Positions 19,506 through 27,079 are shown, numbered from the stretch's first letter. The stretch: 32,376 nt of DNA from an uncultured Gammaproteobacteria bacterium (GCA_964540975.1 CAZIOQ010000006.1:1-32376); one strand, 5' to 3'. The notes: generated by a model from the letters alone, not told the origin. Program-made: numbers and translations.

Positions 19506-20651
19506 TTACTTATAAAGCAAAGGTTTGCCCATTAAAGCCAATTCTAGGCTTAAGCGTCGGTTTTGCTTGTCAATTCTTTCCACAAAACACTTGATTTTTT
19601 CCCCTTCTCTAATTACCATCTGGGGCGGTATTTTACTAATATGAACCAAGCCTTCAATTCCTGGTTCTAATTTAACTAGGGCACCAAAATTAGTCATCTG
19701 GGTCACTACCCCTTCAATTGGTGTATCTTTCGGATATTTCTCTTCGATTGTTTCCCAAGGATCTTTAAAAAGCCTTTTTAAAGAAAACTGCAATTTGCCA
19801 TCCTCTTTAGAAATCAACATTGCTTTTAGCTTGTCTCCTTTTTTATACATCGCCAGCAAATCACTAACTTTGTCCCAGGAGACTTCAGAAATATGAACCA
19901 AACCTTCTAATTGTAAAACGCTTTTGTTTTTTAAGGGCAGTTTAATTTTGACAAACAAGCCAAATGGCTCTACCCTAACCACCTCTGCCCTGAAAACATC
20001 GCCAATTTTTATTTTCTCCATAATCTCTTTTTCTTGATCAACAATCTCTGGTTCACTCGCCATTCTTTCACTAAAGACCAGTCTGTTTTTCTCCCGATCT
20101 ACCTCCAAAACCTTAACTGTAATCTTAAGACCAATTAATTTCTCTGGATTGTGTTGGTATTTAACCCCAATTTGTGAGCCAGGGATAAAACCAAATAAAC
20201 CAAAAGGGGCAATCACTACCACGCCACCAGAAGAGACTTCTTTACCCAAAACCTTGATGTTTTCTCTTGATTTAAATTTCTCTTCAAAAAATTGCCAAGC
20301 TTTTTCAAAAGCCGCTTTCCTGATCGAGAGCAAAATTTGTCCTCTTTCGCTTTCTGGCACCCTCACCTGAGCGGTAATTTCGTCACCAACCTTAAGCTGG
20401 GAAACAAAATCCCGCACTCTCGCCAATTCCTTGCTTAAAACCACTCCTTCTGTTTTAGCACCAATATCAATAAATAAAGCGTTTTTCCTAATTTCTGAGA
20501 CAACACCTTTGACAAACTCTCCCTTTTTCAATCCTTTTATTTTGTAATCCAAAACAGCCAAAAACTCCTCCATCGAGGCAAAAGAAGAGTCTTTTTTAGC
20601 CAATTTGACAGTTGGTTTTTTTAAAGTTAATGAATTTTTCTTTTGACTCAT
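19506..20651 (-). CDS. rpsA: 30S ribosomal protein S1 (four S1 domains)
   Basis: IDIGAKTEG, GFIPGSQI, EGLVHISEVSW, EGLVHISKI. Confidence 0.93.
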   Translation of the reverse strand: MSQKKNSLTLKKPTVKLAKKDSSFASMEEFLAVLDYKIKGLKKGEFVKGVVSEIRKNALFIDIGAKTEGVVLSKELARVRDFVSQLKVGDEITAQVRVPESERGQILLSIRKAAFEKAWQFFEEKFKSRENIKVLGKEVSSGGVVVIAPFGLFGFIPGSQIGVKYQHNPEKLIGLKITVKVLEVDREKNRLVFSERMASEPEIVDQEKEIMEKIKIGDVFRAEVVRVEPFGLFVKIKLPLKNKSVLQLEGLVHISEVSWDKVSDLLAMYKKGDKLKAMLISKEDGKLQFSLKRLFKDPWETIEEKYPKDTPIEGVVTQMTNFGALVKLEPGIEGLVHISKIPPQMVIREGEKIKCFVERIDKQNRRLSLELALMGKPLLYK

Positions 20652-20789: not shown

Positions 20790-20908
20790 TCCCCGGCTAT
20801 GACCTATTTTCTCCTGACACAAGATCAAGATATCGTCAGCGCTGAAGCGTTTCACTATCCTGTTCGGAATGGGAAGGAGTGGTTCCACTTCGCTCAAATA
20901 ACCGGGGA
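20790..20908 (-). rRNA. rrf: 5S rRNA
   Basis: Helix I TCCCCGG/CCGGGGA; conserved CCCATTCCGAAC, GTGAAACG and AATAGG motifs; 119 nt. Confidence 0.95.
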
Positions 20909-21167
20909 ATTTAATCCAAAAACCAGGCGGTAAAATTTAAGTTTGCTTTTTTGACCGATAGGAATGGTTTGGCTAAAACTGTTACCAGTCTTACACCTAC
21001 CACCCATCACCCAGTAGTCTCCTGGGGGTCTTAACGATTCCTCATCTTGGGGACGGCTTCCCACTTTAGATGCTTTCAGTGGTTATCCGTTAGAAACATA
21101 GCTACCCGGCAGTGCCCTTGGCAGGACAACCGGTACACCAGAGGTTTCTCCAGGTAGGTCCTCTCGT

Positions 21168-21926
21168 CAACTTTTTCTTTTGTTACCAAAAGGTTAGACT
21201 ATACCTTCATCCCGATTTAATCTCGGGAGCTTGCCTTATTATGGAAGCGCTAATTTACCCCTCATCCTAGGAGTATAACTTCCATCTCGTCCGCCAAACA
21301 AATTGGCAAGACTCAGTCGTTAAAGGGGTATCAGGCCTTTCTTAATAAAACTTTGTCTCACAAATTCATAGTTATACTTTTTCCGTACTGTCGCATAGTT
21401 TAACGAAGAAATTTTGTCCGAGAGCTGACATAGTTTTAGAAACTCCTCCGGTCTGGGATTTTTCTCCAAGATAGAAATTGCCTCGAGCATGATCTCAACT
21501 TGCTTTTTCTTAAAGAGAATAGATGGAAACAGTTCTTTTAGAACAGACTTGACCGTCTGGTGACCTTCAATTCTCAACTCAGTAATCCTGTCCTTCCTTC
21601 TCGTTAAATATCCTCTCCCCAATTTTTCTTTGATCTAGAACAGTCCTTTTTCATAACGACTATCCTGATAAAAGCAAATTGTTGTCTTTGCCCTAAAGCC
21701 AAAACTAACTCTCTTTCTTGGTTTACACTGAAGCATTACGCTTCCGTCACCATCCAAAAATCCTGCAATATATGCTTTTTCTTCTTTCTTCATTAAGATC
21801 AGCCTTAACCTTCCCTTGGTGTGGCCCTCTAAGTTACAAGGACCAACAACTTCATTTATTATAGAGGGTTTCACCAATTTGAGCAAGTGTGACCTTGGCA
21901 GTTACCCACCAAGGCAGCATTTATTT
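21168..21926 (-). mobile_element. Group I intron (IA-type, with P7.1/P7.2) inserted after U2656 in the sarcin-ricin loop; 759 nt
   Basis: Exons rejoin as CAGT|ACGAGAGGACC. The 5' exon ends in U and the intron ends in G. Helices: P1 CAGU/GCUG with U-G, P2 CCTTGGTGG-GTAA-CTGCCAAGG, P3 CTTGCT/GGCAAG, P4 TTGGTG/CACCAA, P7 A(C)GACTG/TAGTCT, P8 TCCCGA/TCGGGA, J8/7 GAAGGTATAGTC, P9 CTTTTG-GTAA-CAAAAG. Confidence 0.93.
21320..21793 (-). pseudogene. Single-motif LAGLIDADG homing endonuclease (I-CreI-like) in the intron P6 loop, broken by an in-frame TAG
   Basis: YIAGFLDGDGS motif. Track ORFs 21635-21886 and 21320-21622 are in the same frame, separated only by TAG at 21635-21637 (KGLF*IKEKLGRGY). C-terminal PEEFLKLC..SDKISSLN resembles I-CreI. 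Confidence 0.9.
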
Positions 21927-23418
21927 ACTGTACCCGGATCCCCTCAAGAATCAAGCGGTTATTGTGGATAGAGTCCGAACTGTTTTGCAACGTTCTGAAC
22001 CCAGCTAACGCGGCGCTTTAATGGGCGAACAGACCAACCCTTCCCGGCTTCTTCACCAGGAGGATGCGCCAAGCCGACATCGAGGTCGCGATCCAGGCCG
22101 TCGATATGGACTCTCGGGCCTGACCACGCTGTTATCCCCGGGGTAACTTTTATCGTTTAAGTTCCCTCCCATACCATTTGGCAAGGGAAGATCACTAGGA
22201 CCTGCTTTCGCATCTGCTCGACCCATCGGTCTCGCAGTTAAGCCGGCTTCCGCCCTTACACTACCAGCTCGATTTCCATCCGAGCCTAGCCGACCTTTGT
22301 GAGCCCGCGTTACTCTTTAGCAGGCAACTGCCCCAGTTAAACTGGCAACCAAGCACTGTTCCTGTCCGAGTTTCCATCGAACATAGGTTAGGTTCAAGAA
22401 TGATGAAGAGTGGTATCTCACTGTCGTTCTAACTTAAGGTTAGAACTCCCACCTATTCTCAACAATCATCAAACCATCCCCAATGCTAAGTTCCAGTGAA
22501 GCTCCACGGGGTCTTTTTGTCCCACAATAACTAACCGGCATATTCACCGGTATTTCAATTTCGCCGGGTAGAGGGTCGGAGACAGTTGCTCGGTCGTGAA
22601 GTCGTTCATACCGGCCAGAACTTACCTGGCAATGGACTTCGCTACCTTTGGACAGTTATGGTTACTGCCGTCGTTCACCGGGGCTTCAGGCTGCAGCACT
22701 AGCGCTTTGCCAGCACCGCTCTCCTTAACCTTCCGGCACCGGACAGACCTCAGCCCCTATATCTCCCCTTACGGGTTTGCAGGGACCGGTGTTTTTGGTA
22801 AACAGTCGCCGAGCACTCTTTTGTTGCAGCCTACCTTACCACAGGATAAGGTAGGCAAGGCATCTTGCGAACTTACACCTAGCTTGTTTGCCGAGTTCCT
22901 TGACCCTCTTTTACCCGATTGCCTTGGTCTACTCGACCTGCCCACCAGTGTTGGTTTGTGGTACGAATGCCGTTAGTTTTTGTCCACCAATTGGCAGACC
23001 GAAGCGAAGTTTTTCTCGGCATCTTAGCTTAATCTGTTCTCCTAATCCTAAGATTAGGATCACTGCTAAGCTCGCCTCCAAATCAAGATGGCGGATTTGC
23101 CAACCATCTCTGACTTGCCAAGCAGACGCTCCGATTCCACTGGAACGCCAGATCTACCAAGATGCGTCACTCCCCTTCAAAAAAACTAACGACAGCGCCG
23201 GAATATTAACCGGCCATCCTTCGGCTACTCCCCTGAAGCCAGAGGACTGACCTTAGGATCGGCTAACCCTCAGTCGACGGCCGTTGCTGAGGAAACCTTA
23301 GGCTTTCGGCATTCCGGATTCTCACCGGAATCACGCTACTCATGCCGGCATTCACACTTCCCGACGCTCCACCCCGCCTTACAGCGAAGCTTCACTGCCT
23401 CGGGAACGCTCCCTTACC

Positions 23419-23610
23419 ATCCTCGCCCCCTGGACGAGGAAATCCTAAAAGATTAAATCCTAATCGCAATTCTAAACAAATTCTAGTTTGCCAATTTCTC
23501 CAATTCAAAACATTTTTGTTTGGAGCATTTGATTTTGGCATTTTGAGATTGTTTAGGGCTTAGGATTTAGAGATTCGTGCTTAGAATTTCCTTGTCCAAG
23601 AGGCAAGAAT
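23419..23610 (-). other. Intervening sequence (~190-nt hairpin) in 23S helix 45
   Basis: TGGACGAGGAAATCCTAA ... TTAGAATTTCCTTGTCCA arms with an AT-rich interior, between the conserved GAACGCTCCC.TACC and CTTCGG segments; no ORF. Confidence 0.8.
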
Positions 23611-24195
23611 CTTCGTCTTCGGCAATCTGCTTAAGCCTCGTTAAATTTTCGGCGCATCTTGCCCTTCCCAAAACAAATTTGGGAATCGAGTGGTGAGCTG
23701 TTACGCTTTCTTTAAAGGATGGCTGCCTCTAAGCCAACCTCCCACCTGTCTTGGGCAAAACACTACCTTTCCCACTGAGCAGATTTTAGAGGCCTTAGAC
23801 AGAAGTCTGGGATGTTTCCCTCTTGTCCAACCAGCTTAGCCCGGCTGGGCTGACTGCTTTATCAAACTTACCTGGTATTTGGAGTTTGATTGGATAGAGG
23901 ATCTTGCGATCCTTTACCCATTCAGTGCTCTACCACCAGGAAGGTTAAGATAAAACGCTATACCTAAATATATTTCAGGGAGAACCAGCTATCTCCGGGT
24001 TCGATTGGCATATTACCCCTAACCCCAGGTCATCCGATGGGGTTGCAGCCCCAACCGGTACGGGCCTCCTTCTGATTTTTATCAGAATTCACCCTGCCCA
24101 AGGTTAGCTCACCCGGTTTCGGGTCTTCCGTCAGCTGCTCAGGCCTTATTCAGACCCCGCCGAAAAAATTTCGGCATCGGTTTCCCTCTGCCTCC

Positions 24196-24269
24196 CCCCG
24201 CACCTTTGTCGTCGAAGCACATCGGTCATCCAAACCCTTCCAAACGCTTCGCCCCACAAAGGTGCGGGG
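24196..24269 (-). other. Expansion hairpin in 23S helix 28
   Basis: Perfect 14-bp stem CCCCGCACCTTTGT/ACAAAGGTGCGGGG replacing the short E. coli loop. Confidence 0.7.
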
Positions 24270-24325
24270 TTAGACTCGCAACTGACGAAAACTCGCCGGC
24301 TCATTCTTCAATAGGCACGGTATCA

Positions 24326-24475
24326 CACCTCGCTTCGCTCGGTGCTCAAATTCAAAATGCAAAATTCAAAATTTAATCTGTCCGCGACGCGTCTATATAA
24401 ATTATTGCCGAGCAATACCATAATTTTGATTTTTGATATTTAATCTTTGATTTAAGCATCGAGTGAAACGAGATG
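24326..24475 (-). other. Intervening sequence (~150-nt hairpin) in 23S helix 25
   Basis: About 26-bp basal stem (CATCTCGTTTCACTCGATGCTTAAAT / ATTTGAGCACCGAGCGAAGCGAGGTG) continued by heptamer repeats. Confidence 0.8.
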
Positions 24476-24540
24476 CTCTACCTGCTTGTTAGCAAGCGGT
24501 TTTAAGTTCTATTTCACTCCCCTTCCGGGGTTCTTTTCAT

Positions 24541-24573
<33 letters not shown>

Positions 24574-25115
24574 GCAAGAGTATTTAGCCTTTCCCGATGG
24601 TCCGGGAAGATTCCCACGGGGTTACACGTGGCCCGCGGTACTCAGGAATTCCGTGCTTGTCTACTAAGATTTTGCCTACGAGGCTTTCACTCTCTTTGGC
24701 CGCCCATTCCATGGCGTTCTGCTACCCTTTCGACAAGGGTGATACGGAATCCTCCAACCTCCAGCTGTTTCCAAAGAAACGGCTAGGTTTGGGCCTAACC
24801 GCTTTCGCTCACCGCTACTTACGGCATCACTACGTTGTCAAGCAACGTTTTTCGTTTTCTCCTCCTCTGGGTACTAAGATGTTTCAGTTCCCCAGGTTCC
24901 CTCACCGCGTTTAGACGCAGTGTATCCCGATTCAACATCGGGATGGGTTTCCCCATTCGGAAACCGCCGGATCAAAGGTTGCAGACACCTTCCCGACGAG
25001 TATCGCCGTCTGCCGCGTCCTTCTTCGGCTCTTGCCGCCAAGATATCCACCACTTGCTTCAGTAAAAACAAAGCTTAAATTTACCGCCTTGTTTCTGAAT
25101 TAAACTCCCAACTTT

Positions 25116-25128
25116 TTTTCAAAGTGCA
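25116..25128 (-). promoter_or_regulatory. boxA-like antitermination site upstream of 23S
   Basis: TGCACTTTGAAAA immediately after tRNA-Ala; consensus TGCTCTTTAACA. Confidence 0.55.
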
Positions 25129-25129
25129 G

Positions 25130-25203
25130 TGGAGCTGGGCGGGGTCGAACCGCCGACCTTCCCGCTGCAAACGGGGTGCTCTTGCCAGCTGAGCTACAGC
25201 CCC
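25130..25203 (-). tRNA. tRNA-Ala(TGC); CCA not encoded
   Basis: GGGGCTGTAGCTCAGCTGGCAAGAGCACCCCGTT-TGC-AGCGGGAAGGTCGGCGGTTCGACCCCGCCCAGCTCCA; G3-U70. Confidence 0.96.
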
Positions 25204-25209
25204 TTGATT

Positions 25210-25238
25210 AAAAAAACCGGGACCTTTGTCCCGGCTTT
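25210..25238 (-). terminator. Intrinsic terminator-like hairpin in the rRNA leader
   Basis: AAAG-CCGGGAC-AAAG-GTCCCGG-TTTTTTT, ending 6 nt before tRNA-Ala. Confidence 0.7.
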
Positions 25239-25338
25239 AACCTCTGAAACACCCCTTCTGTCTAAACAAGAATTGCCTGAATGAGTCTATTAAAAGTCAT
25301 TAATGGGACAAAGGCAAAGTTATTCTAACTGTGCTTTA

Positions 25339-25367
25339 ATTATATCGAGAGTCCAAGGGGTTGTCAA
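25339..25367 (-). promoter_or_regulatory. Consensus sigma70 promoter of the tRNA-Ala-23S-5S unit
   Basis: TTGACA-N17-TATAAT, a perfect match. Confidence 0.9.
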
Positions 25368-25542
25368 TAAGCCATTTCAGGTAAAATACCCAAGCGCATC
25401 AATCCGCTTTCTTACAAAAAATTTTAAACGAAAACAAAGTTAAGTTTTTCTCTTTTTTTCGTCCATTTCCCAAGCGATTGGCGTAACAACACCAAGATGG
25501 ATGCTTCATTAACAACCAGTATTTGGTGGTAAAATAGTCTTG

Positions 25543-27079
25543 ATGAATAAATTTTTAAAACAAAAACTTCTTATCGGCTTGCTTTTTTTCTTAATTAGTC
25601 TAGTTATTCTTTTTTTAAATTATTATCCCCACTACTATGGGTTAAGAAAAACACCCTCAGGTTCTTTCTATTCCGGACAAGCTTCTTGGTTTGACCCGTG
25701 GGACATTAATAATTATTTTGCCATAATCAGACGAGCCCAAGAAAAAAGAAGCTTACTGCTTGAAAATTTCAATACCAGTCAGCCGACTAAGCCAACCCTA
25801 ATTTATCCCTTCTATACTATTGCCGGTAATCTTTTCCCCAATATTAATTATATTATTTTGTTTCATGTTTTAACTATTGTTTGTGGATTTTTATTAATCC
25901 TAGCTATTTTTTACTCCTCCTTTCTTCTCCTGAAAAACACCGCCTATTCACTAGTCTCCCTTCTGTTTATTTCCTTGGGCGGAGGCTTTGGTTGGCTTTT
26001 TTCCTCGTCCGGGCAATCCGCCGATATTTATATCCCCGGACTCACTTTTTTATTTCCTTCCAAAAACCCCACCAAGCAATCGCCACCATTCTTTCCATTT
26101 TTTCTCTTGTTTTTTATTTTCTGGCGATCCAAAAGAAAAACTACTTTTTAAACCTAATCTCTCTTTTTTGCTTTTATTACTCATTCCTTTTTCTCCTTAT
26201 TATCCTTTAGTCTATTTTCTAATTTGCGGCTTGTTTGTTTTGATTTACTTTGACAAAACCCGACTCTATCCCCTTTCTTTCCTCGGATTAAATTTGATAA
26301 TTTTTCTCCCCATTGGGATTTTGTATCTCTCCCATTTCGCCTCCTCAGGATATTCCGTTCTTACTAGCTATCAACCCCAACCGCTTTCACTTTCTTCGCT
26401 TGCCTTAGGCTACGGCTTGTTTCTGCCGATTTTTATCTATCAACTCTTCCACTTAACCCCGAAGGATAAAACAATGGTTTTTTTAAATATCTGGTTTCTT
26501 GCCTCCTTTTTGCTCTCTTGCTTCCCTATTGGATTCGGCAGACTTTTTTTAAATGGACTTCTTTTTCCTCTGGTTTTAATCAATCTTCTTTCTTATAAAG
26601 ACGTTGCTCTAAAGTTTCAAACAAGCTCCTGGTTAATAATTTTAATTTTAGCAATTGCTTCTCCCTTATCTTCAATTCATATTTTCACTGCTAGGATAAA
26701 TGAAACAAAGAAACAAAATCCTTGGTATTATTTGCCTTTGGAGATAAAAGCTGGTTTTGAGTTTTTGGAAAAAGAAAAAAACAGCAATGGCGTTTTGGCT
26801 TTACCTTTGCTCTCAAGCTATATTCCTGCCTGGACAGGTAAAAACGTCTATTGCGGCCATAAGGATCAGACTCCGAATTTTGAGGAAAAATTAGCCAAAA
26901 TCATCAATTTTTACTCAGGAAAATTCTCTTTAAAAGAAGGAGAAAGGTTTTTGAAAGATAATAAGATAGATTTTGTCGCCTATTCTCAAGAAGAAAAACA
27001 ACTGGGCGTTCTCAACTATCCTTTTTTAAAAAGTAGTTACAAAAACGAAAAAATTGAAATTCTCAAAAAAAGATCATAA
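25543..27079 (+). pseudogene. GT-C-like polytopic membrane protein (~512 aa) split by two single-base frameshifts
   Basis: Adding one T to each T6 run (26046-26051, 26164-26169) joins the three track ORFs: ...IPGLTFFISFQKPHQAI...NLISLFLLLLLIPFSPYY.... Motifs D..NYFA.I, GGGFGW, IPAWTGKNVYCGH..QT, FLKDNKIDFV. Confidence 0.7.

Follow-up and report, generated by a model that had tools for sequence, protein, structure and literature searches.

How can a bacterium transcribe its 23S rRNA gene when a complete intrinsic terminator stands directly in front of it? This question is raised by a DNA stretch of 32,376 nucleotides (GCA_964540975.1, CAZIOQ010000006.1:1-32376; hereafter, the window), which represents one entire contig of a genome of 638,275 bases distributed in 63 contigs and rated 93% complete. 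The organism, deposited as an uncultured Gammaproteobacteria bacterium, is best read as a small-genome Patescibacteria (Microgenomatia-type) bacterium belonging to an uncultured order. On the minus strand of the window, a leader of ~120 nt separates a consensus promoter from a transcription unit composed of tRNA-Ala, 23S and 5S rRNA genes, and a putative terminator occupies the end of this leader (Table 1). We propose that the leader is a ribosome-sensing transcription attenuator of the leader-peptide type, whose input would be a ribosome translating, or sitting on, an open reading frame (ORF) of 12 codons. We estimate the probability of this reading at about 0.55.

A predicted terminator in front of the 23S rRNA unit

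Judging from the promoter spacing alone, transcription would start near position 25332. The hairpin found at the other end of the leader has the features of an intrinsic terminator, namely a GC-rich stem-loop and, immediately after it, a U-rich tract in the ~7-9 nt range, and transcription is expected to terminate at the U7 tract. Promoter, hairpin, U7, 6-nt gap and upstream complement are all present on the minus strand, and the coordinates given in a preliminary description of this DNA, made from its sequence, are correct. Since only 6 nt separate the U7 tract from the tRNA, which leaves no space for a second promoter, all transcription of tRNA-Ala, 23S and 5S has to cross a canonical terminator; a built-in antitermination device is therefore to be expected. 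We found the hairpin with a custom script. A general terminator scan did not list it, perhaps because it extends the stem into the T run.

The order to which this organism belongs comprised 132 genomes, 71 of them with a 23S 5' end, and we assembled 69 leaders from it. A perfect stem with at least 6 T within the next 8 nt, upstream of tRNA-Ala (or of the 23S gene if the tRNA was absent), was present in 63 of these 69 leaders. Inspected by eye, the remaining six carry either a mismatched stem (L032, L038, L050, L057 and L072) or an AT-rich stem followed by T8 (L035), and T runs are also visible 3' of these imperfect hairpins. Most of the leaders have an upstream promoter scoring 10-12 of 12. 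Across genera, the tops of the stems and the loops vary, and the CCG/CGG base and the T run are kept; a DNA search in 40 relatives retrieved matches spanning the hairpin proper in several genera. Some leaders of the family that we call f5 (L055, L056, L063) contain two hairpins in series, CCGAAGGC...CTTTCGG and then CCTGCC...GGCAGG, with a T run after the second only. A metagenome pattern scan combining the hairpin and the tRNA-Ala start yielded six loci, of which L115 and its duplicates L119 and L120 were relevant; L116-L118 turned out to be unrelated GC-rich terminators preceding other tRNAs.

The unit is indeed devoid of a 16S rRNA gene, as the preliminary description had it: the genome contains a single full 16S, on a different contig from the 23S, and none of the 30 loci fetched from relatives held 16S sequence within 1.5 kb of the 23S, which indicates that the 23S unit is unlinked throughout. 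A consensus promoter, a ~120-nt transcript and a canonical terminator also make up the classical layout of a small-RNA gene, so that the leader might be a separate small gene (for a small RNA or as the mRNA of a micro-peptide), with rRNA fed by leakage through the terminator; the peptides predicted in other families of the class, which share an MRS...F(L/C)RG pattern, could be seen in this light. However, this explanation has to accommodate the 6-nt gap, the position of the unit before tRNA-Ala/23S across the order and part of the class, and the fact that the terminator 5' arm has a co-varying alternative partner (see below), superfluous for a simple gene end. We consider it very improbable.

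A conserved helix competing with the terminator

Upstream in the leader, the segment CCTTTGTCCC (25314-25305) is the exact 10-nt complement of GGGACAAAGG (25232-25223), which covers the terminator 5' arm and loop. Only 3 of 5000 dinucleotide shuffles produced a contiguous complement of at least 10 nt between the hairpin and the 92-nt leader (P=0.0006), and the minimum free energy (MFE) of the leader (-37.2 kcal/mol, z -3.1) was equalled by 1 of 200 shuffles. The full-length MFE structure of the window leader is the antiterminator form (-35.3 kcal/mol vs -31.9 kcal/mol with the terminator enforced), and the predicted equilibrium probabilities are 0.99 for the antiterminator and 0.009 for the terminator. 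The terminator was likewise missing from the MFE structure of four of the five leaders of the window's family (f1), of 10/13 leaders in f2 and of 3/4 in f6. Outside f5, in the other five families, the terminator 5' arm and loop find their best partner in the 5' untranslated region (UTR) of the ORF described below, at a site that ends 4-30 nt before its ATG.

Comparison among relatives argues that this pairing is maintained. In a swap control with 26 leaders from the five families, each UTR was paired either with its own terminator or with the terminators of other genera: the cognate duplexes had a mean energy of -11.75 kcal/mol vs -8.81 kcal/mol for the non-cognate ones and outperformed them in 14 of the 15 genera (permutation p=5e-5). 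Pair counts were made on six alignable leaders of one genus, g5; MAFFT placed the strands of the five f1 leaders one base out of register, and its alignment was excluded from these counts, the f1 helices being taken from per-sequence folds. In g5, the long-range antiterminator of 10 bp was paired in 96.7% of the cells, with changes on both sides at two pairs in five cells (CG:3/UA:3 and GC:4/AU:2), a value as high being found in 1 of 500 shuffles, and slid controls had only 28-57% of their cells paired. The terminator of the same leaders was paired in 97.9% of the cells, with both-side changes at one pair (152/500 shuffles as high). Both mutually exclusive helices are thus maintained in g5, which is the signature of a switch. 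Leader by leader, a shuffle test of the antiterminator gave p<=0.05 in 17 of 63 cases only, a count in which most f5 leaders fail and the g5 promoter was misplaced.

The window therefore has an antiterminator that excludes its terminator and that has been kept in evolution, as attenuators do. The switch that the preliminary description had postulated before tRNA-Ala/23S/5S is borne out by its relatives, in which the upstream strand co-varies with the terminator 5' arm and loop through compensatory changes, and in f1 the predicted energies of the two folds differ little. We regard a conserved terminator/antiterminator switch at this place as highly probable.

Nus/boxA antitermination offers a different way to look at the hairpin. 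It could be a boxB-like antitermination stem and/or a processing stem (for RNase III, or in the 5' leader of tRNA-Ala processed by RNase P) and not a regulated terminator, with the long helix as a processing or folding helix, the relic processing stem that the preliminary description had named as its alternative. As in the rrn antitermination leaders, with their boxB, boxA and boxC elements, outlined in PMC10250234, a promoter-proximal hairpin is here followed by a boxA-like motif, and the genome encodes NusB; the 16S leaders of the order, made of promoter, short hairpin and boxA, have the same general look. Motifs of the type GCAC(T/C)TTGACAA or GTTCTTTAAAA stand 3' of the hairpin in the 23S and 16S leaders of relatives, and the window contains the boxA-like GCACTTTGAAAAA. 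Unlike in the rrn leaders, however, the hairpin is followed by U7 and has a co-varying alternative partner, so that the helix competing with it is kept by compensatory changes as expected for a switch, and the boxA lies past the terminator and, in f1, even past tRNA-Ala; Nus/boxA antitermination, for its part, acts mainly on Rho-dependent termination. Moreover, all 63 hairpins scanned in the 23S leaders are followed by 6 or more T within 8 nt (this was the criterion of selection), whereas many hairpins of 16S leaders, examined by eye, have no such T run. A processing stem would also have no need of the ORF of fixed geometry that we describe next. We find this explanation improbable.

A short open reading frame in the leader

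Directly 3' of the upstream antiterminator strand, at position 25300, an ATG opens a short ORF that was not noticed in the preliminary description. Defining leader ORFs as ATG frames that have 8-30 codons and stop 12-40 nt short of the hairpin, with the expectation taken from dinucleotide shuffles, we detected one in 62 of the 63 leaders vs 13.2 expected and, with a single leader counted for each genus, in 32 of the 33 genera vs 7.1 expected. The single miss (L063) fits if the first of its two hairpins is taken, and five of the six leaders with imperfect stems carry the ORF as well. The 62 ORFs have a median of 15 codons (range 9-26) and their stop codons are placed at a median of 27 nt from the hairpin, the gap being 19-32 nt in 60 of them. 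The other two frames over the same 997 codons contain 112 and 68 stop triplets. In f1 the peptides diverge completely (MTFNRLIQAILV, MLDHFSNFLRDI, MTQKIINKNAHS, MTQKIFKNNKIIF and MAKRYLSDIQQRRR) and the frame is kept; it also persists through compensated internal frame shifts in L023 and L050. An excess of changes at third codon positions is seen in f6 (6/4/11 at positions 1/2/3), in the genera g6 (2/2/8) and g28 (2/1/6), and also in g11. The leader ORF is not preceded by a Shine-Dalgarno sequence, which is no objection because the host genome hardly uses them (a Shine-Dalgarno 4-mer was found for 74 of 439 long ORFs vs 54 of 440 controls) and its true starts have an A-rich context. A short ORF 5' of a terminator is what characterizes leader-peptide attenuators, and the persistence of its frame suggests that it may be translated.

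In f1, this ORF and the switch overlap. The predicted full-length folds of four leaders of the family (L005, that of the window, and L006, L007 and L008) consist of one long interrupted duplex. Its 5' strand runs from the upstream strand over a short spacer into the AUG and the first codons, and its 3' strand consists of the pre-terminator segment followed by the terminator 5' arm and loop; the remainder of the ORF forms a ~46-nt loop closed by the helix. The duplex energies are -19.6, -21.7, -26.8 and -24.2 kcal/mol, respectively, and the start-region pairs differ in each genome (AUGAC/GUCAU, GAUGACUC/GAGUUAUU, AAUGGCCAAAA/UUUUGGCCUUU and UGACUUUU/AGAGGUUA, the last one being that of the window). 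In the fifth leader of f1 (L115/L033), the duplex is weaker (-13.3 kcal/mol) and the terminator stays in the MFE structure. A ribosome on the ORF of an f1 leader would thus overlap the switching strand: translation would have to initiate on the very strand that forms the antiterminator, so that a ribosome bound at the start site would preclude the antiterminator and vice versa.

Several observations weigh against a leader that is translated and read by ribosomes. The P of ~2e-21 (Poisson-binomial) obtained for the count per genus supposes independent genera and is an upper bound on significance, as the genera are not independent and the ORF thresholds were chosen post hoc. No leader ORF is present in L035 (genome G090), a locus with a tRNA-Ile, a promoter of its own and, directly before tRNA-Ala, an AT-rich hairpin with T8. 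The peptide sequence is unconserved within the window's own family, no conserved codon runs that might serve as clustered regulatory codons appear in the listed peptides, changes at codon positions 1/2/3 amount overall to 52/51/74 (p=0.057 only), and g5, g8 and g17 display no codon-position periodicity. With a position weight matrix of true starts, the ORF of the window scored -0.80, at the 14th percentile of held-out true starts, a score reached or exceeded by 36.6% of decoy internal ATGs; we take the start context as neutral. TAG ends 38 of the 62 leader ORFs vs 59 of 440 long ORFs genome-wide, and a GGAGG-like purine motif occurs near the stop in a varying frame (in f5, 8-17 nt before it and in all three frames), so that an RNA-level motif may account for part of what we call the ORF end. 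As for the overlap of start and switch, the swap control of the start region against the pre-terminator segment was not significant order-wide (p=0.41, 0.74 and 0.57), the pairing being clear in f1 only. In f5, the largest family, whose leaders possess both ORF and terminator but a UTR of only 5-10 nt, the terminator is retained in the MFE structure of 35 of the 38 leaders and no significant cognate antiterminator was found (start region against either arm, p=0.13 and 0.77). Finally, a search of sequencing runs for this DNA returned two DNA runs and no RNA run.

Some of these points would suit an RNA switch that works without translation, in which the deciding factor would be a protein (e.g., a Nus factor or a ribosomal protein in its free form), a small ligand or just the speed of transcription and the temperature, the ORF being then an untranslated by-product of RNA-level constraints. 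The antiterminator helix is well supported independently of the ORF, the start context in the window is mediocre, third-position bias is weak overall and peptides are unconserved in f1, and both the TAG excess and the frame-varying GGAGG-like motif fit this idea; attenuators controlled by ribosomal proteins are known, such as those of L20 and L10(L12)4 in Bacillus subtilis (PMC1865079, PMC4538822). It is nevertheless difficult to reconcile with an open ATG frame having a fixed end in nearly all the leaders, which survives the turnover of its sequence and compensated frame shifts, and neither a core conserved across families (by eye) nor an Rfam match was found that could be the site of a ligand or a protein. 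We judge a switch without translation unlikely.

A third pairing and other candidate signals

The preliminary description had added a third state to the switch, an anti-antiterminator in which TTGCCT/AGGCAA, extended by GTC/GAC and ATTAA/TTAAT, would trap the upstream strand. All these pairings are present in the window leader, and the nascent RNA up to position 25240 has exactly UUGCCU/AGGCAA, GUC/GAC and AUUAA/UUAAU as its MFE structure (-10.9 to -14.3 kcal/mol). It is a predicted nascent fold of this leader only, its conservation is poor, and we do not consider the third state supported. The corresponding hairpin of the sister genus has little stability (-4.1 to -8.7 kcal/mol), and the upstream hairpin H1 of g5, which we considered as an analogue, has 86.1% of its cells paired but no both-side changes (500/500 shuffles as high), so that we rejected it as an anti-antiterminator.

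A ligand, or pairing with the separate 16S unit, had also been suggested as the effector, and we found nothing in favour of either. An Rfam scan of the whole window at gathering thresholds gave no match in the leader, and a scan of 25050-25700 at E<=10 detected only the tRNA and six sub-threshold chance hits. With no covariance-model match and, by eye, no core common to the families, the leader does not resemble a riboswitch or another described cis-acting RNA. A conserved TTAATGA motif was considered as a C/D-box or k-turn and discarded, the families being inconsistent by eye. We also discarded the idea that the element substitutes for a missing stringent response, since the genome encodes domains of RelA/SpoT, of NusB and of Rho.

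Proposed attenuation by a ribosome on the leader

The ribosome appears as the most likely effector because the start codon of the conserved ORF is situated inside the antiterminator strand. In the mechanism that we propose, RNA polymerase would start at the consensus promoter and, ~120 nt further on, would reach the intrinsic terminator. On a leader without ribosome, the terminator 5' arm and loop would pair with the upstream strand, a pairing extended through the AUG and the first codons, and this long interrupted helix, the predicted lowest-energy fold, would allow read-through into tRNA-Ala, 23S and 5S. A ribosome initiating on the ORF, or parked in it, as the terminator 5' arm emerges would instead leave the terminator free to form. 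The gap of 19-32 nt would place a ribosome at the stop codon too far away to melt the terminator and near enough to crowd the pre-terminator strand.

We lean towards this direction, in which a translated leader leads to termination and a free leader to read-through. The opposite one is somewhat less probable: translation would melt the nascent hairpin that holds the upstream strand and so promote read-through. It is conceivable because the 3' strand of the anti-antiterminator lies inside the ORF, and we give it a lower weight because its nascent hairpin is weak in the sister genus.

Leaders of 16S rRNA and of other families

Examined by eye, 41 leaders of 16S rRNA genes of the order consist mostly of a promoter, a short hairpin, often without a strong T run, and a boxA, with no space for an ORF; the ~80-nt ORF segment is absent from most of them. 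To judge from this comparison, the segment with the ORF seems to be particular to the leader of the 23S. The organism's own 16S leader (contig C24 of its genome, G000; leader L004) is longer, with a TTGACA-17-TATTAT promoter, a mini-ORF of only two codons, ATGAGTTAA, and a CCCGAC-GCTG-GTCGGG hairpin with ATTTTT directly 3' of it. In addition, an upstream GACCAGCG complements the hairpin loop and 3' arm, and a boxA-like GCACTTTGAAAAT is found further 3'. This leader may be related, in a reduced form, to the 23S attenuator. Another 16S leader, L088 (genome G006), was unreadable owing to a long N run directly after the first 16S-like start. The host genome has, at the edge of its contig C31 (positions 23-130), another 16S-like sequence, a 5' fragment sharing 79% identity with the start of the genome's own 16S, which could be bin contamination or come from a second strain or organism.

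For a class-wide sample, the 23S 5' end was matched in 117 of 201 genomes, and we fetched 40 leaders from 40 other families; none of our conclusions depends on the one genome of this sample that is marked as unpublished. The 16S 3' end occurred within 700 nt in two of them. An automatic scan detected a hairpin with a T-tract before tRNA-Ala in 20 of the 40, and 19 of these 20 had the ORF; several further ones have hairpin and ORF by eye (e.g., L125, L138, L143). Many peptides of these families (L124-L163) share an MRS(L/Q)...F(L/C)RG-stop pattern, which is a lead only. A 5'-UTR hairpin, AGGAGUCAGUCCU, is also shared, and its 5' arm resembles the terminator 3' arm (GGAGCC). The element is conserved across the order and probably in much of the class Microgenomatia.

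Host and gene neighbourhood

Among the relatives of one protein encoded in the window, the closest records were titled Candidatus Shapirobacteria, Microgenomates and Patescibacteria group. Contigs encoding a Rho 65-80% identical to the Patescibacteria-type Rho of the host are in many cases titled 'uncultured Gammaproteobacteria bacterium' (L167, L168 and others), which is probably a default or wrong label.

Table 1. Coordinates of the leader elements and of the genes downstream of them in the window
Feature	Position	Strand	Remarks
-35 hexamer TTGACA	25362..25367	-	12/12 consensus promoter, 17-nt spacer
-10 hexamer TATAAT	25339..25344	-	12/12 consensus promoter
Antiterminator 5' strand (G)CCUUUGUCCC	25305..25315	-	4-14 nt 5' of the AUG; pairs in the MFE structure
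Leader ORF MTFNRLIQAILV	25262..25300	-	ATG, 11 sense codons, TAG (25264-25262); ends 27 nt before the hairpin
Start-codon region UGACUUUU, second part of the antiterminator 5' strand	25292..25299	-	pairs with 25245-25238 in the MFE structure
AGGCAA, ORF codons 8-10	25273..25278	-	partner of UUGCCU 25317-25312; proposed anti-antiterminator
Pre-terminator segment AGAGGUUA	25238..25245	-	pairs with the start-codon region
Terminator hairpin CCGGGAC-AAAG-GUCCCGG	25217..25234	-	7-bp stem (6 G-C pairs), 4-nt loop; 5' arm 25234-25228, 3' arm 25223-25217
U7 tract	25210..25216	-	directly 3' of the hairpin
tRNA-Ala(UGC)	25129..25203	-	ARAGORN; Rfam tRNA 58.5 bits; 6 nt (AATCAA) past the U tract
boxA-like GCACTTTGAAAAA	25115..25127	-	read from the sequence; 3' of terminator and tRNA
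23S rRNA, gated gene	21786..25073	-	Rfam LSU_rRNA_bacteria 2037.8 bits, model positions 1-2925
5S rRNA, gated gene	20791..20906	-	Rfam 5S_rRNA 69.8 bits

The 23S match extends over 3288 nt for a model of 2925 positions, so that the gene contains ~360 nt of insertions. It is separated from the 5S gene by a spacer of 879 nt (20907-21785, minus strand). Two mechanically predicted ORFs in this region (21320-21622 and 21635-21886, the latter extending into the 23S 3' end) have nothing above the Pfam cut-off. The next gene 3' of the 5S, on the same strand (19506-20651, minus), encodes a protein of 381 aa in which four S1 RNA-binding domains are recognized (Pfam S1, E=1.5e-42) and which is probably ribosomal protein S1, and it may be co-transcribed with the rRNA unit. 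Ribosomal protein S1 loads ribosomes on mRNAs devoid of Shine-Dalgarno sequences. A tmRNA gene, absent from the ARAGORN output, was found on the plus strand at 2508-2871 (Rfam, 111 bits).

Relation to known attenuators

Ribosome-mediated transcription attenuation is well known from the leader-peptide attenuators of amino-acid operons (trp, his, leu, thr, ilv, pheA). The leader described here has in common with them a short ORF, an intrinsic terminator, a mutually exclusive antiterminator, an ORF or initiation region overlapping the switching strand, and a stop codon placed a few tens of nt before the terminator. It differs in that the gated genes are those of tRNA and rRNA, in having no runs of regulatory codons, and in the position of the antiterminator strand, which is at and upstream of the start codon, whereas theirs lies within the ORF or 3' of it. 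What is sensed would therefore be whether ribosomes load on or occupy the leader, and not the supply of one charged tRNA.

Another parallel is offered by uORF-dependent attenuators that respond to ribosome stalling, such as that of Bacillus subtilis vmlR (PMC9226507); a short upstream ORF is there also followed by a terminator/antiterminator, and read-through is set by the state of the translating ribosome. Attenuators of that type, however, control antibiotic-resistance proteins and respond to drug-stalled ribosomes, whereas the output is rRNA here and we identified no stalling motif. The infC and rplJL leaders of B. subtilis, attenuated by L20 and L10(L12)4, respectively, similarly couple the synthesis of ribosome components to the state of assembly, but they gate mRNAs of ribosomal proteins through the binding of a free ribosomal protein to an rRNA mimic (PMC1865079, PMC4538822); no such mimic came to light in the present leader, no search having been aimed at it. 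The titles and abstracts surveyed dealt with leader-peptide, uORF and ribosomal-protein attenuators and with the boxB-boxA-boxC leader of rRNA; in none of them did we find, for these bacteria, an rRNA leader that contains an ORF or a regulated terminator. The proposed mechanism would thus be of a known kind, ribosome-mediated attenuation, and what would be new is its target, the pre-rRNA, and its geometry, with the start site as antiterminator strand.

A possible ribosome feedback on rRNA synthesis

How rRNA synthesis is adjusted to the demand for ribosomes is a long-standing question, and its control is known to operate at promoters (through ppGpp/DksA and initiating NTPs) or during elongation (Nus/boxA antitermination). 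A feedback of free ribosomes on rRNA was, to our knowledge, proposed decades ago without a direct mechanism, and we know of no earlier case of a pre-rRNA leader read by ribosomes. One tentative possibility is that the leader exerts such a negative feedback: free ribosomes would load on the mini-ORF in the nascent pre-rRNA leader and bring about termination, and when ribosomes are scarce the antiterminator would form and rRNA would be made. Since most 16S leaders of the order, inspected by eye, are devoid of the ORF segment, 23S/5S and 16S would be controlled differently when unlinked. The element is short and modular, and it shows where unlinked 23S units truly begin across a large radiation of uncultured bacteria. 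If our proposal is correct, a leader-ORF attenuator before the 23S would provide a direct mechanism for ribosome feedback on rRNA synthesis, with a translated ORF on the pre-rRNA transcript through which ribosomes would directly gauge their own abundance.

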